64,000 nt of DNA from positions 1 through 64,000 of IMG/VR virus record IMGVR_UViG_3300030521_000002, one strand, 5' to 3'. The notes under the pieces are model-generated. The model made no database searches. It saw only the letters and a list, made by a program, of their open reading frames with translations, and was not told where the DNA came from. This document shows positions 2,202 through 41,929 of this stretch, piece by piece (the stretch's first letter is position 1; each line of letters begins with the position of its first letter). The translations under genes and the position numbers were made by a program. The stretch is from a virus.

Positions 2202-2979
2202 TTCCTCGATAGTGGATTACCCCCAACTTACCTTCGTGGTTTGTTCTCAACTGGGGAACCATTACACAGACAACCTTAAACTCATCACCCCACTGAACGA
2301 CTGTTGGAGCTAAGCCAACCACAATTCTAATTACGTCAGGGGTGAGTTGGATGAGCAAGCCCTCGTTATTCTCAAGGTACTCAGTCGAAATGTCAGCATC
2401 GGTTCTTTTGTACTTAGCAACCCAAGGAACGATCCACAAATAAGGTCCGTAGTAATGAAGCTCTTCCAATTGCTTGGGGGCGAGTAAGTTCAACTGGTGG
2501 GTTGTGATTCTCCCCGGATGGTTACAAAGCCCAGGAATCTGCATTTCCTCATTACCATAGAACAGCATTGCCTCAACAGCAGCCGCTACGCTCGCCGCAT
2601 GTTCAGCACAATCTTCGAGGTTGGTAAAGCTGCTATGGGAGATTGGTAAAGGTAGGGATTGCATTTTAAATGTGGGTACATTTGCTGGAACTTCCCCTAC
2701 CTTATCTTCAATAACAATCTCTGGCTCTAACACGATATTTGGTAGGCTTGCTACTTCCAGCGAAGTCTTTTCCATGATAGCCAAGGTAATCATCGCATGT
2801 TCTTTAAATTGCGTCTCAACAATGGCATCCATCCTTGCCCATTGCTCTTTTGTCAGTCTAGCTTTCCCCTCATAGGGCTGAGCAAGCCCACCATCATTAC
2901 TTACCCAAGACGTTCCATCGGGCATTAGGTAAGGTCGCAACTTCCAAGGTTCTTGTAATTGTTCAAGTGTTGCTGTCAT
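2191..2979 (-). CDS. shortened HK97-fold capsid/encapsulin (Linocin M18-like) protein paralogue
   Basis: motifs LRPY, LTKEQWARMD, LPLPISHSSF, IPGLCNHPGR, YYGPY, LIQLTPDVIRIVVG, VVQW, FKVVCVMVPQLR, GVIH resemble this capsid family but with internal deletions. Confidence 0.6.
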   Translation of the reverse strand: MTATLEQLQEPWKLRPYLMPDGTSWVSNDGGLAQPYEGKARLTKEQWARMDAIVETQFKEHAMITLAIMEKTSLEVASLPNIVLEPEIVIEDKVGEVPANVPTFKMQSLPLPISHSSFTNLEDCAEHAASVAAAVEAMLFYGNEEMQIPGLCNHPGRITTHQLNLLAPKQLEELHYYGPYLWIVPWVAKYKRTDADISTEYLENNEGLLIQLTPDVIRIVVGLAPTVVQWGDEFKVVCVMVPQLRTNHEGKLGVIHYRGNEG

Positions 2980-3176
2980 TCGCCTTCCTCCCCTTCATCA
3001 TCGCCTTCGTCATCATCCCAGTCATCGTTACTATCATCCTCGTCCTCATCGTCTTCTTCTATCTCAGACTCATCGTCGTCATCCCAATCGTCTTCATCTT
3101 CCATGTCCGAATCATCATCCTCAGATCGGATGGGGTTATACTGCTTCGGTGGTGCTGGACGTAATGACCTGCTCAT
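2976..3176 (-). CDS. small highly acidic protein
   Basis: D/E-rich ORF with an AGGAG RBS; start/stop overlap with the next gene. Confidence 0.55.
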   Translation of the reverse strand: MSRSLRPAPPKQYNPIRSEDDDSDMEDEDDWDDDDESEIEEDDEDEDDSNDDWDDDEGDDEGEEGE

Positions 3177-3184
3177 AAAGGCTC

Positions 3185-6100
3185 CTAATGAGAATGATTC
3201 AAACCAAAACGATGATTAGCTAAACCTCCGATTGCGCCGTGCTTCCTAGCCAGTGTTGCAGTATAGATAGGTCTGGGAATTACTTGTCTGTCATTGTTAA
3301 TCATGGCTTGGATCAGAGGTTCAGCTAAGTCTTGCACCCTAGGGTCTATTGTAGCATGATTGGTAACGATCGAGTCGTTTCTCGTATAAGCAGAAACAAC
3401 AGAGTCGATTGCATGTTCAACTGCCTTTCTGCCAATATGCTTAGCGGTCGCCTTACCTACATCACCCACCACGCCTAGAGCTTGGCGAGCCACTTTCATA
3501 ATGCGACCCCCCTTCTTGCCTTCCACATGACTACCATCGCTCGTGCCGTGAATCTCGGCCTTGTTATTCTTGGCCCAACGATCCAAGGATTCCTTGTTCT
3601 TAAACTTGAGGCGGAAGGGTTTCTTAGCATCCCCTTGCGTACCATGTGCTTCGATATGTTGGGGAGTAGAACCTTTGCCACCGGACCTAGAGCGAATGCT
3701 ACGAGCGGCGGAACCTAAAATCGTATGGGCTAATTTCTTATGTTGTGACTTTAGGTGTCTTTCTTCCTTACTTTGCCCCTTACCCGTATCGAGCGGCTCG
3801 GTGAGGATCGCTTTGGCATGGCCTTTGAGCTTTTGGGCAAACTCCCCGAGCTTTTGCCTACGGAGGTCTTTGTGGGCTTGCTTTTCGCTGGCCTTAGCTT
3901 TGGCAGCGTGTTCAGGGTAGCGTTGATAAAATCGAGAACCACCGTCAGACGATCCTGAACTGCCGCCACCCTTATTAGCAAACTTACCATGATCTCTTGG
4001 ATGCTTCGATTCTTCAAAGGCATTTCTACTAATAGGGAATCCGTTTTGGGGCGGGAGTTCTTCTTCATCTTGTTCGTCGCCATAAACTCCTTGGCCCTCT
4101 TCAGGATTACCTTGTCCAAAACCTCCCAATCCTCCAGCATCTTCTTCTTCACCTGGTTGTCCACTGCCATCGCCCGTTCCATCGTCATAGATTGGTTGGC
4201 CATTTTCATCGAATCCTTGCAGTTGAGGGTCTTCCGGCCCATGTCCAGGCACTAGCTCATCCATGCCCACATCCGGGTTTACTTCCATCATATGCGATTG
4301 GGCACCTTCGAGAATCGCGGTGGCCTCGTCTTCCGTGAAGTCTAGTTCCCTAGTGAGTAAGTCAGTGGGGCTCATCAACACATCAATGCCACCACTGACA
4401 TATTGAGCCATGACTCCCATTCTCGCCGTAGCCACTTGTGCCTTCTGGAGTGAGCCTAATGCTTCGATATCTTCCCATTGTACCTTGTAGCTCACAGGTT
4501 GGGGCAACACACCCATTGCAATCAAGCGGTCCACAAAGGGGACGATGATCCTAGGAGTCAGGTACATCTTCTGTCGTTCTCTAACCCGCTTCTTCCAGGT
4601 CTCACTATCTTGAGAAGAGGCTAGTTCAGCTTGCTCACTCCCCATGAAGATACGCTTGGGGACATTGATCGTAATACAGATAGCAGTAATCTGTACATCA
4701 ATCTGCAAAGAGGGGTCACTCACCTGCGGAGCTAGTTGATTAGCCGATAGCCCCTCCGTAGCAATATGCCGTTGCAAGCTATTACGATACCTCTCCATCG
4801 CCTTCTCAAGTGCATCATAGTCAATCGTGATATCACTACCCAATTCAGGGTGAGTTTCCCACGAGATACCCATGAAAGCAGCCATCCAGAACATCTCAGC
4901 ACTACCGCCATACAGCTTCTTGAGGTCGAGTAGGCGATTGAAGACCGGACGTTGAGCAGGCACCCCGATAATCTCACTGCTATTGACGTTATCACTGCTA
5001 TTGGTAAGGTGGATTACTCTGGACCAATGCACTTGCTCGGTCGTGTTCCTAACCCCAATCCCAGGATGACTGTCTTGAGGGTCTACAAATGTGACCTGGT
5101 ACATCAACGGTTGCCCATACCGTGGATTGTTGGGGTCACGTTCGTATTGCAGGATGTTGACTAAGGACTCGTCGAAGGCCCTGAGGTAGAGCAGCTTATA
5201 CTTAGTCTCGACATGCGTTGGTTGTCCAAATTCATCCAAGTTTTTATTTCCAGATTCTTCTGCTGATCTTTCCGGGTCAAGATAGTCGGACCCACCCTGA
5301 ATCTCTTCTCCGTCTGCGCCCTCAACCTCTGGGCCGACTGGTTCTTCTGTTTCGAGGTTGACATCTTCCAATGATCCTCCATAGTTAGGCTCGATTGGTA
5401 AATCTTGTTGATCCTGCTCATCCCCTACGTTTGGGTCATTTTGCCCTAGTCTTTCCCACTCTTCATCATCCATTCCAGGCGGCTTACCGTTAACAGGAAC
5501 ATCATCCTCCTCATTGTTAGCGTCGAAGTTATACGCCATCTGCTCTTTGCGGTCCTGGCGTTGCTTATCCAACATCTCAGGAGTAAGTTCCTTGTCTGGC
5601 GGAGAATTGAGCTTATCCAGCTTCTCAGCACCACCAGGAGTTAGTAAGGGATCATCACTTTGCGAAAGACTCGTCTCTGCCGGATAATCACCTTCACCAG
5701 AACCATACTCTGGCTTAAGCTTGGGGAAACCTTTCTCAAAGCCCTCCACAGCCTCTCGGAGGGGCTTACCATCGTCGATACCCATCAGTAAAATACCAAA
5801 GCTCCCAATCCTGGTAAGAATATCCGCTCGTCTGAGATACTCCCAAATCGGGTTGCCTTCCTCATCCTCATGCCAACTCTCACCCTTAAGGGACATTCCT
5901 ACTTGATCGAAGGCCAGCTCAAAGGGAGTCTCTACCTCTGCATCATCATCTTCCGTAATGCTGACATTAGATTGCCAACACTCCTTGGGCCAGATTTCCA
6001 CAACCCGCGTAGCAATCCCCTCGCGGTCATACATCTGCCGATAGTCTTGGGAAGAGATTTCAGTAGTTTCTGGATAACCACACTCTTGGTCAATATCTCG

Positions 6101-23883: not shown

Positions 23884-26550
23884 TTAAAGAACTTCTCCTT
23901 CTGACCAATTCTTGGGGTGCCATGTCGCACCGCACGTCAACGGAATTCCAATGCAACCACCAACCGATTCCATGATCTCACGAATCTTCTGGATGATAGG
24001 GAAATTACCTTTGTTGGACTTGGCTGGCATCTCGATTACCAGCTCATCATGTATCTGAGCAATTATATGATATCCATCCAATGTCTGCAAGTAACGATGC
24101 ACCTTATCCATCGCTCGCATGATTACCCAGCACGCTGAAGATTGGATATGGTAGTTCAAAGCCTGTGTAGGAGAAACTCGCCCCCAAGCACCTCGATTAA
24201 GTTGGATAGGATAGCCGCGATCAGGGTCTACTTCCTTATCTGGCATTGTTTCAACATGGCCATTCTTATTCGCTAGGTTAATGTACTTTTGATTAAGTTT
24301 GGTGTGCTCCTTCAAACGGTCTTTAACTAATCTCCATGCGCCTTTTTTATGGGCTGCTCGATCGCAAGTTTCTTCCCCACCTGAATAAGAATAGGCGAAG
24401 CCAAAATTCTTGACATGCCCATAGGTGCTTTTATAGGTTTCTCTGAAAGCACCTTTTTGTTCTGCTAGTGGAAAGAATAACTCTGGGTAAATAATACTCG
24501 CGTTCATCAAGTGGTAACTACCAAAAAATGGTGGCTCATCTGGCTTCTCAAAAATTTCAATCATTACCTGCTCACCACTTTCATAGGCCGGCAGGCGAAG
24601 CTCTAAATTATCGTAATCAATGGATACCCACTCTTTATCTGGCGTGGGTCCAAAACAATAACGAAGATTGAAGTTTTCTTTCTTGCTAATGTTCTGCTCG
24701 TTCGGATTCGAGGAAGACCAGCGAAGGGTTGCCGTGCCAACGCAATTCAAGTTAGGATGAAGCTTATACCAACCTACACTACGTGTTTCCAAGTCTTCCT
24801 GTGTATAATTTGACCGATCGTTGACTGACTGGCCAATCCAAATTTTAGAGCCAGTTTCTCTTGGCTTAGTAACCCCGCTGCATAAATTTGACGAATCTCC
24901 CGAACCTGATCTTCTGTTAGTTTCGCCTTGGCTACTGCTTCTCCCCTGGCTGCCAACATTGGGTTGATTACCAGCGGGTGCTCTGCTCCCCGTCTTATTT
25001 TCTCCGGGTGTGTTCTCGATCCGCTCCGATCCCCTCTGGCCAATCTTTCGGGTTTGAATCGGCTCCAGTGCATCTCCCCTCTCGGCAACCTTTCCGGGTA
25101 AAGTCTCGATCCGTTTCTGTCCCCCGTCGCTTGTCTGTTCTTGGCTACCATATCTGCCGAGTTGTCTTTGTTTGTTCCCAATACTAAGTGATCCGGGTTT
25201 ACACAACTTGGGTTGTCGCAGGTGTGCATTACTATTAGGCCCTCGGGAATGGTCCCCTTGAATAGCAGGTAACTCACACGATGGGCCTTGTTTTGACCCA
25301 CCACGTGAAATTGTCCGTACCCGTTCTTGAATTTCCCCGCTATCCAAATCCAGCATGTTTCCGTCTTCTGAACCTTGGCCAGAAACTTGACTAAAACTTT
25401 CTTCATTGTCTGTGGGGTCATTGGCATGACGAACCTCGATATATTTCCAAAACCGTTTGTAACCATCCATATAAGCGCAGGCTGTATCCATCTGCCTTTT
25501 GCTTCTAAGCGAGTTTATGAAAGCAAGCGGCTTACTTCTTGGCTTGAGGGATGTTTGATAATGTTCAATCGTATCTTTATTGAGAGATGGGGCACCATTC
25601 TCAGTCCTGTTGACCACTTCCAATTTTAATACGTCGAATATGAAGGTTGTCAGGGATTTGTTATTTCCAGATTTAGGCAGCTTAAGATCATAATTATAGC
25701 CCTTGGCTAAGTTTATACAAACTCTTTCAGCTATCCCGCTTCTTTCACGGTAATCCTCGAACAACTCATCTACCCTAGACCCACTGACAGTAATTCCACG
25801 TTCTTCCATCGCATAGGCTACCGGTAATACTTTCAACCGCTCTTGGTAAATCTTCCACAATCCACGCCGTTCTAGTTCTTCTTTTTGCACCTTGAACAAA
25901 GCCAATGTCACAGCACTGTCGGCATTGGCATAGATATTACACACGTCATGCCAAGGATGGTCAGCCTCATACCCATCCTCGATTGCGATGCACCGGGCTA
26001 AATAGGAATCGAATTTCCAAACCTTCTCCTTAGCGCTCGGCATCTCGGGCAAACCCTTCTTAGCGATTCGCCAGCCCTTCTTCTCGGCAATCGCCCTAGC
26101 GGCCTTGGTAGCCTTTTCTAAGGCATCCTCATACGGTTGGATATTGATCCCCAGCCATTCCAAGGCTAGGTCAGTTAAGTTATGGGGAGCATTGGAAGCT
26201 AAAAGATGGGCAGCTAAGAGTGTGTCGAGTACCTTCTCCCAAGGCCAAGCAAAATCCAGCTCATTATCAGCATACAAATGGATGAGCATCCCAGCGTCAA
26301 ATTTCGCGTTGTGCAAAATCAGATGATCCGCCCCGTAGATCAAGTCCCTGATTTCCAATAGCTCTGACTTGGGGGCGATAACTGAGCGATCGTGAGGATT
26401 GAGTTGCCATTCCCAAAAGGTATTTAACCCTGCTTCATTGCAAGTCGTTACCAGAAATGGCCGAGCACCGAAGTAAAGATCAAGGCCGCTCGATTCAGTG
26501 TCTACTGACAGAAGTTTTGGGGTAAGCTTCTTGCTTATTGGTTTCGGCAT
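23884..26550 (-). CDS. polA: family A DNA polymerase with a ~215-aa in-frame insertion
   Basis: exonuclease motifs DTE, HNAKFD, YANAD; GTATLRWSSSNPNEQN; motif A IDYDNLELR; motif B KNFGFAYSY; motif C QIHDEL. Confidence 0.92.
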   Translation of the reverse strand: MPKPISKKLTPKLLSVDTESSGLDLYFGARPFLVTTCNEAGLNTFWEWQLNPHDRSVIAPKSELLEIRDLIYGADHLILHNAKFDAGMLIHLYADNELDFAWPWEKVLDTLLAAHLLASNAPHNLTDLALEWLGINIQPYEDALEKATKAARAIAEKKGWRIAKKGLPEMPSAKEKVWKFDSYLARCIAIEDGYEADHPWHDVCNIYANADSAVTLALFKVQKEELERRGLWKIYQERLKVLPVAYAMEERGITVSGSRVDELFEDYRERSGIAERVCINLAKGYNYDLKLPKSGNNKSLTTFIFDVLKLEVVNRTENGAPSLNKDTIEHYQTSLKPRSKPLAFINSLRSKRQMDTACAYMDGYKRFWKYIEVRHANDPTDNEESFSQVSGQGSEDGNMLDLDSGEIQERVRTISRGGSKQGPSCELPAIQGDHSRGPNSNAHLRQPKLCKPGSLSIGNKQRQLGRYGSQEQTSDGGQKRIETLPGKVAERGDALEPIQTRKIGQRGSERIENTPGENKTGSRAPAGNQPNVGSQGRSSSQGETNRRSGSGDSSNLCSGVTKPRETGSKIWIGQSVNDRSNYTQEDLETRSVGWYKLHPNLNCVGTATLRWSSSNPNEQNISKKENFNLRYCFGPTPDKEWVSIDYDNLELRLPAYESGEQVMIEIFEKPDEPPFFGSYHLMNASIIYPELFFPLAEQKGAFRETYKSTYGHVKNFGFAYSYSGGEETCDRAAHKKGAWRLVKDRLKEHTKLNQKYINLANKNGHVETMPDKEVDPDRGYPIQLNRGAWGRVSPTQALNYHIQSSACWVIMRAMDKVHRYLQTLDGYHIIAQIHDELVIEMPAKSNKGNFPIIQKIREIMESVGGCIGIPLTCGATWHPKNWSEGEVL
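24774..25427 (-). mobile_element. HNH homing endonuclease nested in an alternative frame of polA
   Basis: CWIW..GYG..AHRVSY..VMHTCDNPSCVNPDHL..GTNKDN; C-terminal AKLTEDQVREIR HTH; own RBS GAGG at 25434-37 before the ATG at 25427. Confidence 0.88.
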
Positions 26551-38986: not shown

Positions 38987-39178
38987 ATGAAACCCACCGA
39001 GCTAGCCACCTACCTTGCCCTCAGTCACCAACAAGTCAGAGCCTTGTTGCGCAAGGGCAAGATCAAGTCTACCAAGAAGCAGACATTCACCCGCGAAGGA
39101 CGGGAGTTTGGATTTGAGTACGAGATTACCCCCGACGAAGCCCAACGTATCCAACAGGAGAGAACCAATGCCAAGTAA
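38987..39178 (+). CDS. HTH (excisionase-like) DNA-binding protein
   Basis: MKPTELATYLALSHQQVRALLRKGKI. Confidence 0.65.
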   Translation: MKPTELATYLALSHQQVRALLRKGKIKSTKKQTFTREGREFGFEYEITPDEAQRIQQERTNAK

Positions 39179-40310
39179 GAAGACCAAAGCGATTCCCCCG
39201 TCCAAGTTGGCCGACAAACTAGCCAAGCACAAGTCAGAGTTGGATGATGCCCCCCACCTGATCGTCCAAGCGCTCGCAGGAACCGGAAAAAGTACCACAA
39301 TTATCGAGGGCATCAAACTACTGTTTGATATGCCCCCCTCGATCATACCGAGCCCACAACAGCAAGAAATTTGGGATTCGATCCTCTTGAGCAAGGGGAA
39401 AGCTAAGTCTGTGTGCTTTTGCGCCTTCAACAAGAGCATTGCAACAGAACTTCAGCAACGTGTTCCTCCCGGTTGTATCGCCCAGACCATGCACTCGATG
39501 GGATTCAAGGCGGTTCAAGCGGCCTTTGGTAAGGTCCAAGTCAATCAGTACCGAGTACAAGACATTATCAGCGAACTACTCGGCAAGGATATTCGGGATT
39601 TGCGCAAAGACAAGTTCACGATGATTAAAGCTGTGGAAGAATTGGTAGGGTTGTGCAAGCAGACTTTGACAGGCTTTGAGCGACCTAAAACCGGAATCGA
39701 GCGATTGGATTATGCCAATTACAACTGTCAAATCGTATGGCCGGAAACTCTTGCTAACTTGGCAGATTACTACGACGTGGATTGCAACGGTTCTAGTGCT
39801 GAAATCTTCGACCTAGTTCCCCAGGTCTTGGAACGCTGCAAGGACGTTGCCAAGGATCGTTGTATCGACTTTGCTGATATGGTGTGGCTCCCGGTTGTTC
39901 TTAATCTTTCGGTGCAACAATACGACTTACTACTGGTGGATGAGGTTCAGGATTTAGCTAAAGTACAACAACAACTCGCTCTCAAGGCCGGTAAACGCTT
40001 GATACTTGTAGGCGACAGTCGGCAAGCTATTTATGGTTGGGTTGGCGCTGACTCTGGCAGTATGGAGCGAATGTACGATATTTTGTTAGACTACTGTCGT
40101 GCTTGTGATGGGGCTGGAACTATTCTTGGGGCAGTTTGTGAGCAATGTGCCGGTAAAGGAAGTGAAGGGAGGGGTTGTCGAGTTCTACCCTTGACTGTCA
40201 CTCGCCGTTGTGGGAGAGCCATTGTTGAGGAAGCTAAGAAGATTGTTCCGAATTTTGAATGGCATCCGAATAACGGGGAAGGAAAAGTCAGCTATGCACG
40301 GATGAACTAA
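39168..40310 (+). CDS. UvrD/Rep-like SF1 helicase, N-terminal part
   Basis: ALAGTGKST, AFNKSIA, TMHSMG, LVDEVQD, VGDSRQAIY, TRRC; AGGAG RBS before the ATG at 39168. Confidence 0.88.
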   Translation: MPSKKTKAIPPSKLADKLAKHKSELDDAPHLIVQALAGTGKSTTIIEGIKLLFDMPPSIIPSPQQQEIWDSILLSKGKAKSVCFCAFNKSIATELQQRVPPGCIAQTMHSMGFKAVQAAFGKVQVNQYRVQDIISELLGKDIRDLRKDKFTMIKAVEELVGLCKQTLTGFERPKTGIERLDYANYNCQIVWPETLANLADYYDVDCNGSSAEIFDLVPQVLERCKDVAKDRCIDFADMVWLPVVLNLSVQQYDLLLVDEVQDLAKVQQQLALKAGKRLILVGDSRQAIYGWVGADSGSMERMYDILLDYCRACDGAGTILGAVCEQCAGKGSEGRGCRVLPLTVTRRCGRAIVEEAKKIVPNFEWHPNNGEGKVSYARMN

Positions 40311-40318
40311 CAAGATAC

Positions 40319-40413
40319 AATTAGATGTAAGGCTAGACCGGCCAGTCGAAGAGTCAGCACCACACTGACCTGCCTTATATCTAATTTTGTGGGGTTACTG
40401 GTGGAGTAACTTC
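40319..40413 (+). promoter_or_regulatory. structured leader of the GIY-YIG gene (3-way junction plus RBS-sequestering hairpin)
   Basis: 15-bp stem 40319-33/40372-86 enclosing two small hairpins; gttact/agtaac hairpin covering GGAG at 40403-06. Confidence 0.6.
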
Positions 40414-40414
40414 T

Positions 40415-41372
40415 ATGCCTTCTCCCAAGGGTTGGAAATCTGGCGTTTATTGTATTCTTAATACGATTAACGGAAAAAGATACATTGGCAGTGCTGCTAG
40501 GTGTTTCAAAGGGCGATTAGCGGATCATAAGCTTAGGCTTAAAAGTAAAACACATGCTAATCGGTACCTACAAAACGCTTGGAATAAGTACGGCGAGAAG
40601 GCATTTCAATTTATGGTTATTACCGGATGTTGTCCCAGCCTTTGCATAGAGATTGAGCAGCAATACATAGACTTGTACAACTCATCCAACTCTAAGTTTG
40701 GCTACAACATCTGCCCAAGAGCCGGCAGTAGATTGGGCACCAAATTATCACCAGAGGTTTGTGCCAAATTTTCCATAATCTCCAAGGAGAAAATGAACCG
40801 CCCAGAAGTCAGAGCTAAATTATCCGCTGGGACAATAAGGGGCGATGAAGAACCCAGAACTTAGAGCTATTCTCTCAACAAAGGCCAAGAAAAGATTCCA
40901 AGACCCGGAAGCTAGAAGGAAGGCATCTAGAAAAGCAAAAGAAGTTCAGAACAAACCCGAAGTAAGGGCTAAACGGCTAGCAACTTTGAGTTTACCTGAA
41001 TACCAAGAAAAAGTTTCTAGGCTCCAAAAAGATTCTTGGAAAAACAAGTCAACGAGAGATAAAAGAATAGCGGGAATGAAGAAAGCTGTTTTAGCACCAG
41101 GATTCAAAACGAAACTTTCTATTGCATTGAAACAAGGCTGGAGAAAATGTCTTATTAGACAAGGGATTATTTTGAAGAGCCGAATCGGAGAAAGGGAGTT
41201 TACTGTTAGTGAGGTGGTAGAAGTCATGCAATACCAAAGTAGGTTTGGAGCCAGAACTCTTATTTGGAAGTTGGTCAGTTTGGGATTAGCAACATGCTTA
41301 GTGCAGCCCGTAACCAAGCATGTTGTTGGAATTTTCGGGTGGAATGAGGAAAACGAACTATGGAAAATTTAG
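40415..41372 (+). mobile_element. GIY-YIG endonuclease, frameshifted (ORFs 40415..40864 + 40845..41372)
   Basis: GVYCI..RYIGSA..YLQNAWNKYG; PEVRAK-type repeats continue across the break; removing one G from the run at 40839-42 fuses the ORFs. Confidence 0.8.
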
Positions 41373-41929
41373 GCTGCTACAGAGAGTTAGTTAAGGATGG
41401 GGATTTAGTGCTGTGCAGAATTAACGCACCGCTAGTTTCCGAGTGTTTCAAACTATTGAAATCTGGTAGGAAAGCTTCGATCCAGGGTCGTGACATTGGC
41501 CAGGGGCTTATCAAGACCATCGAGAAGATGAAAGCTAGTTCCATCGTTGACATGGTTGCCAAGCTCGATGATTGGCTACGTGCTGAGACGCTCAAGGAAC
41601 AGGCCAAGCGTAACCCCCGAGAACAGAAGACCATCAACCTAGGTGACAGGCATGATTGTCTTTGTACGTTTTGTGAGGATGCTCAGAGCGTACAAGATGT
41701 GGTTGACAAGATTACCCGGATATTCTCTGACACCACGAGCGGCGGGATTCTCCTAAGTTCCATACATCGCGCAAAAGGGAAAGAGGCATCTCGTGTTTTC
41801 CTCTTGCAACCCAAGGGGGCAGAAGTAAATCACCCCATGACAAAGACTGCTCAAGGCAAGGCCGAGAACCAAAATCTAATGTATGTGGCAATTACCAGAA
41901 GTATCCAAGAACTTATTTTTGTGAGCTAA
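41360..41929 (+). CDS. UvrD/Rep-like SF1 helicase, C-terminal part
   Basis: VLCRINAPL, SSIHRAKGKE, NLMYVAITRS; own GAGGA RBS. Confidence 0.88.
   Translation: MENLGCYRELVKDGDLVLCRINAPLVSECFKLLKSGRKASIQGRDIGQGLIKTIEKMKASSIVDMVAKLDDWLRAETLKEQAKRNPREQKTINLGDRHDCLCTFCEDAQSVQDVVDKITRIFSDTTSGGILLSSIHRAKGKEASRVFLLQPKGAEVNHPMTKTAQGKAENQNLMYVAITRSIQELIFVS

Follow-up and report, generated by a model that had tools for sequence, protein, structure and literature searches.

A 64,000-nt stretch of viral DNA (positions 1 to 64,000 of IMG/VR record IMGVR_UViG_3300030521_000002; this whole stretch is hereafter called the window) carries on its minus strand a family A DNA polymerase gene, polA, whose reading frame stays open for 888 codons across a complete HNH endonuclease gene that is read in another frame. 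Our analysis indicated that this is probably a homing endonuclease gene lying out of frame, with neither intron nor intein, that is tolerated because polA is read through it. The arrangement was found at the same site in one other polymerase gene at DNA level and, judged by back-translation, appears in nine further polymerases, and the polA frame within the insert is kept free of stop codons to a degree that chance does not explain.

The 888-aa product matched the Pfam domain DNA_pol_A (E 6.7e-29) as well as a 3'-5' exonuclease domain, and it contains motifs A, B and C of family A polymerases. The catalytic motifs are intact, with D645, K714, Y722, H834, D835 and E836 occupying invariant alignment columns. 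The virus record is 75,293 bp long and is rated 100% complete by CheckV. One DNA_pol_A gene was present, and no second DNA polymerase, either of family B or a Pol III alpha gene, was found in the 75,293-bp record. As the sole DNA polymerase found, polA is presumably an essential gene of this phage. Neither DNA nor protein searches revealed close relatives among deposited phages.

The nested open reading frame (ORF) matched the Pfam family HNH_3 (PF13392; E 6.6e-14, 51.7 bits against a cut-off of 24.8), and the His-Me finger zinc loop was matched as well. An alignment that included the nested gene of a second carrier, the contig L064, showed invariant columns at H68, C70, D71, N72, C75, N77, H80 and N89. 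Homologues occurred in 1,222 phage records, where they were mostly annotated as HNH or homing endonuclease. These similarities point to an I-HmuI-like homing endonuclease of the HNH_3/His-Me finger type; its site-specific cleavage and homing we infer from the scattered distribution of the gene at one and the same site.

The codons of the HNH gene begin one base after those of polA, which places it in the +1 frame. Its ATG at 25427 starts about 19 nt past the W codon of the RFW motif, and its TAG (24776..24774) ends 2 nt before the W codon of WYKLHP. An earlier note on this DNA had described an 888-codon polA frame with a complete HNH gene in another frame, delimited by a GAGG, the ATG at 25427 and the TAG at 24774; the ORF list, Pfam and a base-by-base reading of the junctions confirmed it. 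The same note had put the low-complexity polA-frame insert between RFW and GWYKLHP at about 215 residues. We counted 224 residues between RFW and GWY in the window, where most homologues have 5-10. Alignment with insert-free homologues, which the note had recommended, fixed the boundaries of the insert and placed the insertion point in a variable loop of the polymerase. Of the 672 nt that separate the flanking polA motifs, the HNH ORF takes up 654 (~97% of the insert) and leaves 18 nt outside, and no Rfam match was obtained, in line with the note's argument that an intron core has no room here. Its statement that the polA-frame insert lacks intein ends held as well, with no Hint match and the junction residues absent.

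The RNA around the internal HNH start (window 25405-25465, minus strand; L064 3165-3230, plus strand) was less structured than its shuffled versions, with z of +0.7 and +1.8, respectively. A hairpin that would sequester the ribosome-binding site (RBS) before the HNH start was sought in the window and in L064 and was found in neither, in contrast to several T4 homing endonuclease genes.

A stop codon arises in the polA frame wherever a T-ending HNH codon precedes a codon starting with AA, AG or GA. The earlier note had estimated about 45 such opportunities, none of them used, and had proposed selection for read-through; the estimate was right in substance, and codon shuffling revealed the strong, frame-specific stop avoidance that the proposal called for. 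We counted 48 risky positions, at which a T-ending synonym is available and AA, AG or GA comes next. T-ending codons were present at 0 of these 48 positions vs 28 of 118 positions elsewhere (Fisher p = 2.4e-5). When synonymous codons were permuted within the HNH gene, a mean of 8.2 polA-frame stops was obtained, and not one of 20,000 permutations was free of stops, as the insert itself is. With the codon usage of the genome as the null, 15.9 stops were expected. The third frame of the HNH region contained 18 stops vs 17.9 expected and is thus unconstrained. The empirical null consisted of 114 free-standing homologues, all distinct and complete, drawn from IMG/VR and metagenomes. Their corresponding frame had a median of 6.7 stops per 100 codons and was stop-free in a single homologue, L019. 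Three independent nulls therefore exclude a chance origin of the open polA frame.

The composition of the polA-frame peptide was also unusual. Its hydrophobic fraction was 0.165 in the window and 0.147 in L064, vs 0.298 (median) and 0.192 (5th percentile) in the free-standing homologues. The fraction of T at third codon positions was 0.128 in the HNH gene vs 0.285 genome-wide. The first codon positions of the HNH gene are T-poor too, and for this reason the polA-frame reading is hydrophilic. Between the window and L064, identity was 55% in the HNH frame and 25% in the polA-frame reading, indicating that the HNH frame is the conserved one. Stop avoidance and low hydrophobicity together indicate that selection acts on what the polA frame encodes, which implies that ribosomes read the insert.

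The exceptional free-standing homologue L019 deserves a separate description. Its HNH gene (3986-4447) lies within a matching overlapping frame that is stop-free over 3889-5121 (plus strand). This frame continues into a downstream recombinase-like ORF (410 aa, no Pfam match), and a PD-(D/E)XK exonuclease gene precedes it. The L019 HNH gene resembles the nested genes in third-position T (0.123) and hydrophobicity (0.195). It could represent a second host gene for the same arrangement, or chance; an ATG just past the HNH stop could be the true start of the downstream ORF.

The second carrier, L064, is a GC-rich 74-kb IMG/VR contig in which the HNH gene could be read directly in the DNA, inside polA, where its site and frame offset match those of the window. 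Its polA ORF is open, with 929 codons from the first start codon listed. The L064 HNH gene has the RBS GGAG with a 7-nt spacer, so that both the RBS and the ATG-NCN-ATG-ACC start are kept, and its stop lies 5 nt before the W codon. Further carriers were obtained by a profile search of 1.84 billion cluster representatives (clusters at 50% identity), followed by mapping of the two flank motifs. The search profile took in the N-terminal domain of P0058, and carriers still ranked first. Fourteen polymerases had in-frame inserts of 154-200 residues at the same site. For carriers known only as proteins, the hidden HNH gene was sought by deriving the amino-acid sets that shifted frames allow for each adjacent residue pair and aligning these to HNH proteins. 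Ten of the 14 inserts scored 165-663, in the +1 frame only, vs shuffled means of 34-55 and a shuffled maximum of 68. These carriers were P0122 (the polA of L064), P0058, P0123, P0124, P0125, P0129, P0130, P0131, P0132 and P0134; the nine beyond P0122 had inserts of 159-186 aa and scores of 165-248. Judged by this back-translation, nine further cluster representatives appear to share the layout of the window. The polA proteins of the carrier lineages are merely 41-47% identical to that of the window, with the frame still open.

Because called proteins are open by definition, we looked for broken versions independently of gene calls. A tblastn search yielded 146 IMG/VR polA locus entries with both flanks (some contigs entered twice), and the flanks were in one frame in all of them. 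No broken or frame-shifted carrier was present among these entries, of which only L064 holds the HNH gene. Among about 265 proteins, only P0175, an N-terminal fragment that ends 5 residues past RFW, lacked the C-terminal flank, and it looks like an insert-free gene cut short. When broken-frame versions were sought among shorter proteins, the 27 candidates gave one match, P0121, an unrelated C-terminal piece. An unconstrained frame would give about 100-fold more broken than open carriers, and none was seen. In the relatives that share the insert, the polA frame stays open, and none with stops was found, as the earlier note's reading would have it. Other searches did not enlarge the set: a metagenome search with the HNH alignment gave 80 loci, none of them inside polA; a further IMG/VR search gave no carrier beyond L064; and a genome-contig search retrieved distant cellular Pol I genes only. 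Among sequencing runs, no RNA run was listed as carrying the sequence; the one DNA run that carries it, from the probable source sample, contained the same contig only and no insert-free variant.

The same loop holds other kinds of insert. P0026 (residues 365-548) and P0126 (residues 413-566) carry hydrophilic, low-complexity, in-frame inserts there, for which no frame gave a match to any HNH or GIY-YIG protein tested; another overprinted gene may lie hidden in them. P0155 (residues 394-562) and P0241 (residues 405-571) carry in frame a folded domain with the motif ISGGQNGVDQAAL. A similar domain is present at another site in P0097 and P0002, and Pfam DUF4326 is listed for some relatives.

We modelled the 888-aa product with AlphaFold2, using an 81-sequence alignment (predicted template modelling score 0.77). 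Residues 385-581 had a predicted local distance difference test score (pLDDT) below 50, at about 31, and no secondary structure, while the flanks exceeded 90. The insert leaves the fold from a hairpin of strands 368-371 and 594-597. The model matched phage G20c Pol I and the Klenow fragment (Foldseek E 1e-20), and also Pol theta, with 'loop-deleted' Pol theta entries among the matches. The polA-frame insert is thus predicted to be a disordered loop between confidently modelled polymerase domains. That long, flexible insertions in thumb and palm can be accommodated by the family A fold is evident from the inserts of Pol theta and the thioredoxin-binding loop of T7 gp5. Those loops are conserved as protein and functional, whereas the polA loop described here would be an unconserved by-product of the codons of another gene. 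The coordinates of polA and of the nested gene are listed in Table 1.

Table 1. Coordinates in the window of polA, its parts and the nested HNH gene
Feature	Position	Strand	Remarks
Family A DNA polymerase gene polA, complete ORF read through the insert	23884..26550	-	888 codons + stop
polA residues 1-368: 3'-5' exonuclease domain and N-terminal part of polymerase domain, ending Y..Y.RFW	25447..26550	-	pLDDT >90
polA residues 369-592: insert read in the polA frame, stop-free hydrophilic low-complexity peptide	24775..25446	-	Predicted disordered loop
polA residues 593-888: palm and fingers, from GWYKLHPNLN..GT.TLRWSS.NPN.QNI	23884..24774	-	Motifs A (DY.N.ELR), B (K..F...Y), C (HDE)
Putative HNH_3 homing-endonuclease gene, 217 aa + TAG, +1 frame relative to polA	24774..25427	-	N-terminal HNH/His-Me finger, C-terminal DNA-binding region ending RKTWKHV
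Longer form of the nested ORF from the in-frame upstream ATG at 25466, 230 aa	24774..25466	-	ORF list
HNH_3 catalytic core, motif H.CDNP.CVNP.HL..GT..DN	25158..25289	-	Pfam, residues 60-103 of the 230-aa form
GAGG Shine-Dalgarno sequence of the HNH gene	25434..25437	-	6 nt before ATG 25427

The distribution of carriers was analysed on polA trees from which the insert columns had been removed before tree building. On a 168-row polA tree, the 11 carriers required 10 state changes. On a 53-row maximum-likelihood tree, the carriers required 9 changes, and forcing them into a single clade cost 363 log-likelihood units (approximately unbiased test, p 9e-82). The carriers are thus scattered over the polA tree, as expected of a homing element that repeatedly entered, or was lost from, one site.

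Other associations of polA with mobile genes were observed in this family. Free-standing HNH homologues lie directly beside insert-free polA genes at L073 4106-4396, L076 1134-1736, L088 1591-2001 and L094 4019-4489, which suggests that polA is a habitual target or neighbourhood of this nuclease family. P0060 and P0115 contain classical intein-like inserts of more than 300 residues with Cys as the first residue, located after KNFGFA and after NEQNI; their presence elsewhere in polA indicates that the gene hosts several kinds of mobile element. In L100 (1980-4849), polA consists of two ORFs (232 aa and 480 aa), cut by a DNA methyltransferase gene at 2678-3403. The split falls between the exonuclease and polymerase parts, and P0121 is a similar stand-alone polymerase piece. 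Apart from polA, the plus strand of the window contains at 39015-41929 two ORFs (39015-40310 and 41360-41929) that are separated by the ORFs 40415-40864 and 40845-41372.

Taken as read-through of a homing endonuclease gene that lies out of frame, these observations would fit the following course. An I-HmuI-like HNH_3 gene with its own RBS would have entered polA at a variable surface loop bounded by the RFW motif and the WY.LHP strand. In its codons, every T ending that makes TAA, TAG or TGA in the polA frame is avoided. Ribosomes on polA would read straight through; in the resulting 888-aa polymerase, about 215 residues would form a disordered loop, which would be tolerated at that place. The nuclease would be made separately, by internal initiation at GAGG-N6-ATG. 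It may cut insert-free polA alleles of co-infecting relatives, and repair would then copy the cassette into the same site and frame. Such cutting and repair copying would explain the scattered distribution.

The loop may alternatively be clipped by a protease after read-through, making the polymerase a two-chain enzyme from a single ORF. A loop that is, as predicted, wholly disordered and exposed would be protease-sensitive, and stop avoidance fits clipping as well as it fits an intact read-through product. L100 and P0121 indicate that a two-polypeptide polymerase exists in the same polA family at another site; however, both splits sit between the exonuclease and polymerase domains, away from this loop. 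No protease gene or cleavage motif was linked to the insert, and at 25% identity the polA-frame sequence is unconserved, so no specific cleavage site is maintained. We consider clipping unlikely.

Removal of the insert from the RNA, by an unrecognised or reduced self-splicing element or by a trans-acting factor, would restore the polymerase before translation, and the open frame would then serve, for example, to avoid termination or polarity before splicing. Family A polymerase genes of phages are known to harbour HNH-bearing group I introns (I-PfoP3I in Pf-WMP3, PMC3428280), and Rfam is limited to described families. However, Rfam gave no match in 24300-25900 at E up to 10, the merely 18 nt of insert beyond the HNH ORF leave no room for a ribozyme core, and the 731-nt RNA folded no better than its shuffled versions (z = -0.13). 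Selection against stops and hydrophobic residues in the polA frame would also be unexpected if the insert were spliced out before translation. Splicing of the RNA is therefore, in our judgement, quite improbable.

Protein splicing by a degenerate or mini intein with an out-of-frame endonuclease would restore the polymerase in another way, and out-of-frame endonucleases have been described inside inteins, some of them in polymerase genes (bioRxiv 10.1101/2025.01.02.630785, 10.64898/2026.09.14.751524). Yet no Hint or intein Pfam match was obtained at E up to 10 for the whole protein or the insert peptide, and the latter matched no Pfam family. The insert has no conserved Cys, Ser or Thr at its start and no terminal His-Asn; the residue after it is G/W in the window, and the junctions of other carriers likewise lack intein residues. 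AlphaFold2 predicted no beta-rich Hint fold and no secondary structure in the insert, and the HNH ORF leaves no separate space for splicing blocks. We give an intein very little credence.

Hardly any credence is due to the view that the open frame is a compositional accident of a purine-rich, T-poor gene, or that polA is a dispensable relic, with no selection for read-through: the T-poor HNH coding strand (17.6% T) does lower the stop frequency and one free-standing homologue (L019) has the frame open too, but permutations that keep the T-poor codon set of the gene still expect 8.2 stops, the depletion is seen in risky contexts and one frame only, this frame is open in just 1 of 114 homologues, and it stays open across lineages with polA 41-47% identical, with catalytic motifs intact and no other polymerase encoded. 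The recurrence of the same arrangement in other samples speaks against an assembly artefact.

Several points nevertheless weigh against read-through of a homing endonuclease that lies out of frame. The earlier note had proposed a dual-coding element in which the polymerase carries a disordered loop, and every computational test came out as it predicted; the part that the loop is not spliced out, at the level of RNA or protein, is something we infer from sequence, as are the nuclease activity, the target site and homing. The read-through product would also have to stay active with a loop of 215 residues where thumb and palm meet. Nine of the 11 carrier lineages are known only as called proteins, open by definition, and the HNH gene in them comes from degenerate back-translation. 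Finally, L064 is GC-rich, and there a frame without stops says little by itself (P = 0.11 by permutation and 0.002 against genome codon usage).

To our knowledge, homing endonuclease genes in essential genes have been thought to survive only by means of an intron, an intein or a split of the host gene into two pieces. We lean towards the view that one clade of HNH genes of the free-standing type evolved T-poor third and first codon positions, which keep the overlapping frame stop-free and hydrophilic, and that the bare gene colonises an essential replicative polymerase present in single copy, with neither ribozyme nor intein. If this is true, it would be a third general persistence strategy of homing endonucleases, beside introns and inteins, and may be widespread in environmental phages; a family A replicase would then function while carrying, where thumb and palm meet, about 200 residues of arbitrary disordered sequence. 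The loop concerned appears to be a place at which family A polymerases can accommodate very large insertions. For annotators, low-complexity inserts in phage enzymes can conceal genes.

I-HmuI in SPO1 and I-TslI in phage PhiI are HNH endonucleases encoded by group I introns in phage family A polymerase genes. I-PfoP3I is likewise a group I intron-encoded HNH endonuclease, in the family A polymerase gene of cyanophage Pf-WMP3 (PMC3428280). The element in polA resembles this group in its type of host gene, its nuclease superfamily, its apparent mobility and its targeting of a conserved polymerase stretch. The intron-encoded genes lie in a ribozyme that is spliced from the mRNA, whereas no ribozyme was detected here and selection keeps the host frame open.

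Genes in pieces offer another comparison: mobE splits nrdA in Aeromonas phage Aeh1, and gene 43 is split in T4-like phages. The context of such genes in pieces, made by free-standing homing endonuclease genes, has been described (PMC2790892, PMC2988022). There, as in polA, an endonuclease gene with neither intron nor intein sits in an essential replication gene whose function is retained; in contrast, the host genes there are cut into two ORFs that are translated separately, whereas polA is one ORF. The relative of this kind within the polA family itself is L100, split by its methyltransferase gene. Out-of-frame endonucleases in inteins have been reported from actinophage (bioRxiv 10.1101/2025.01.02.630785) and from cyanobacterial dnaX (bioRxiv 10.64898/2026.09.14.751524). 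As in polA, the host frame runs open across a nuclease gene overprinted in another frame; unlike in polA, Hint splicing blocks lie on both sides of the host-frame reading, which protein splicing takes out.

The closest parallel is the ShiLan domain, which, together with the Pacc40 gp60 insertion, represents out-of-frame HNH genes within the DNA methylase genes of mycobacteriophages (Arsenault, Gosselin & Gogarten 2025, Genes 16:178, PMC11855218). That report proposed a further way of survival, in which the host protein reads through the nuclease gene; it concerned a dispensable methylase and gave no statistics. The arrangement in polA is thus not unprecedented: by analogy of layout, phage methylases carry an element of the same kind in the ShiLan domain (PMC11855218, 2025). 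The ShiLan HNH gene starts 18 bp into the insert and stops in its last 4 bases, with a GTG start and no RBS detected; neither ShiLan nor Pacc40 has an intron or intein signature, a looped-out host-frame product is predicted, and the distribution is disjunct (PMC11855218). Its authors considered that persistence may depend on the methylase being dispensable (PMC11855218). Judged from the layout, the two systems share a conserved site, an uninterrupted host ORF and an HNH gene in another frame that fills nearly the whole insert, and the polA insert likewise combines the lack of an intron or intein signature with a low-confidence loop and a disjunct distribution.

They differ in several respects. 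The host gene here encodes the only DNA polymerase found in the phage and is presumably essential; for the methylase, the argument was that it is dispensable. The HNH gene is in the +1 frame here and in the third frame in ShiLan, and it has a canonical Shine-Dalgarno sequence and ATG instead of a GTG with no detectable RBS. An N-terminal HNH_3 core with a C-terminal DNA-binding tail replaces the central HNH flanked by zinc fingers. The carriers here are uncultured environmental phages, and stop avoidance and hydrophilicity have been quantified. What is new compared with the ShiLan domain is therefore that the host gene is presumably essential, that the internal start is canonical, and that selection on the host frame is supported quantitatively in many lineages. 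The same arrangement is now seen in a complete phage genome whose only DNA polymerase gene hosts it, and at least 11 polymerase lineages, spread across the tree, have it at one site.

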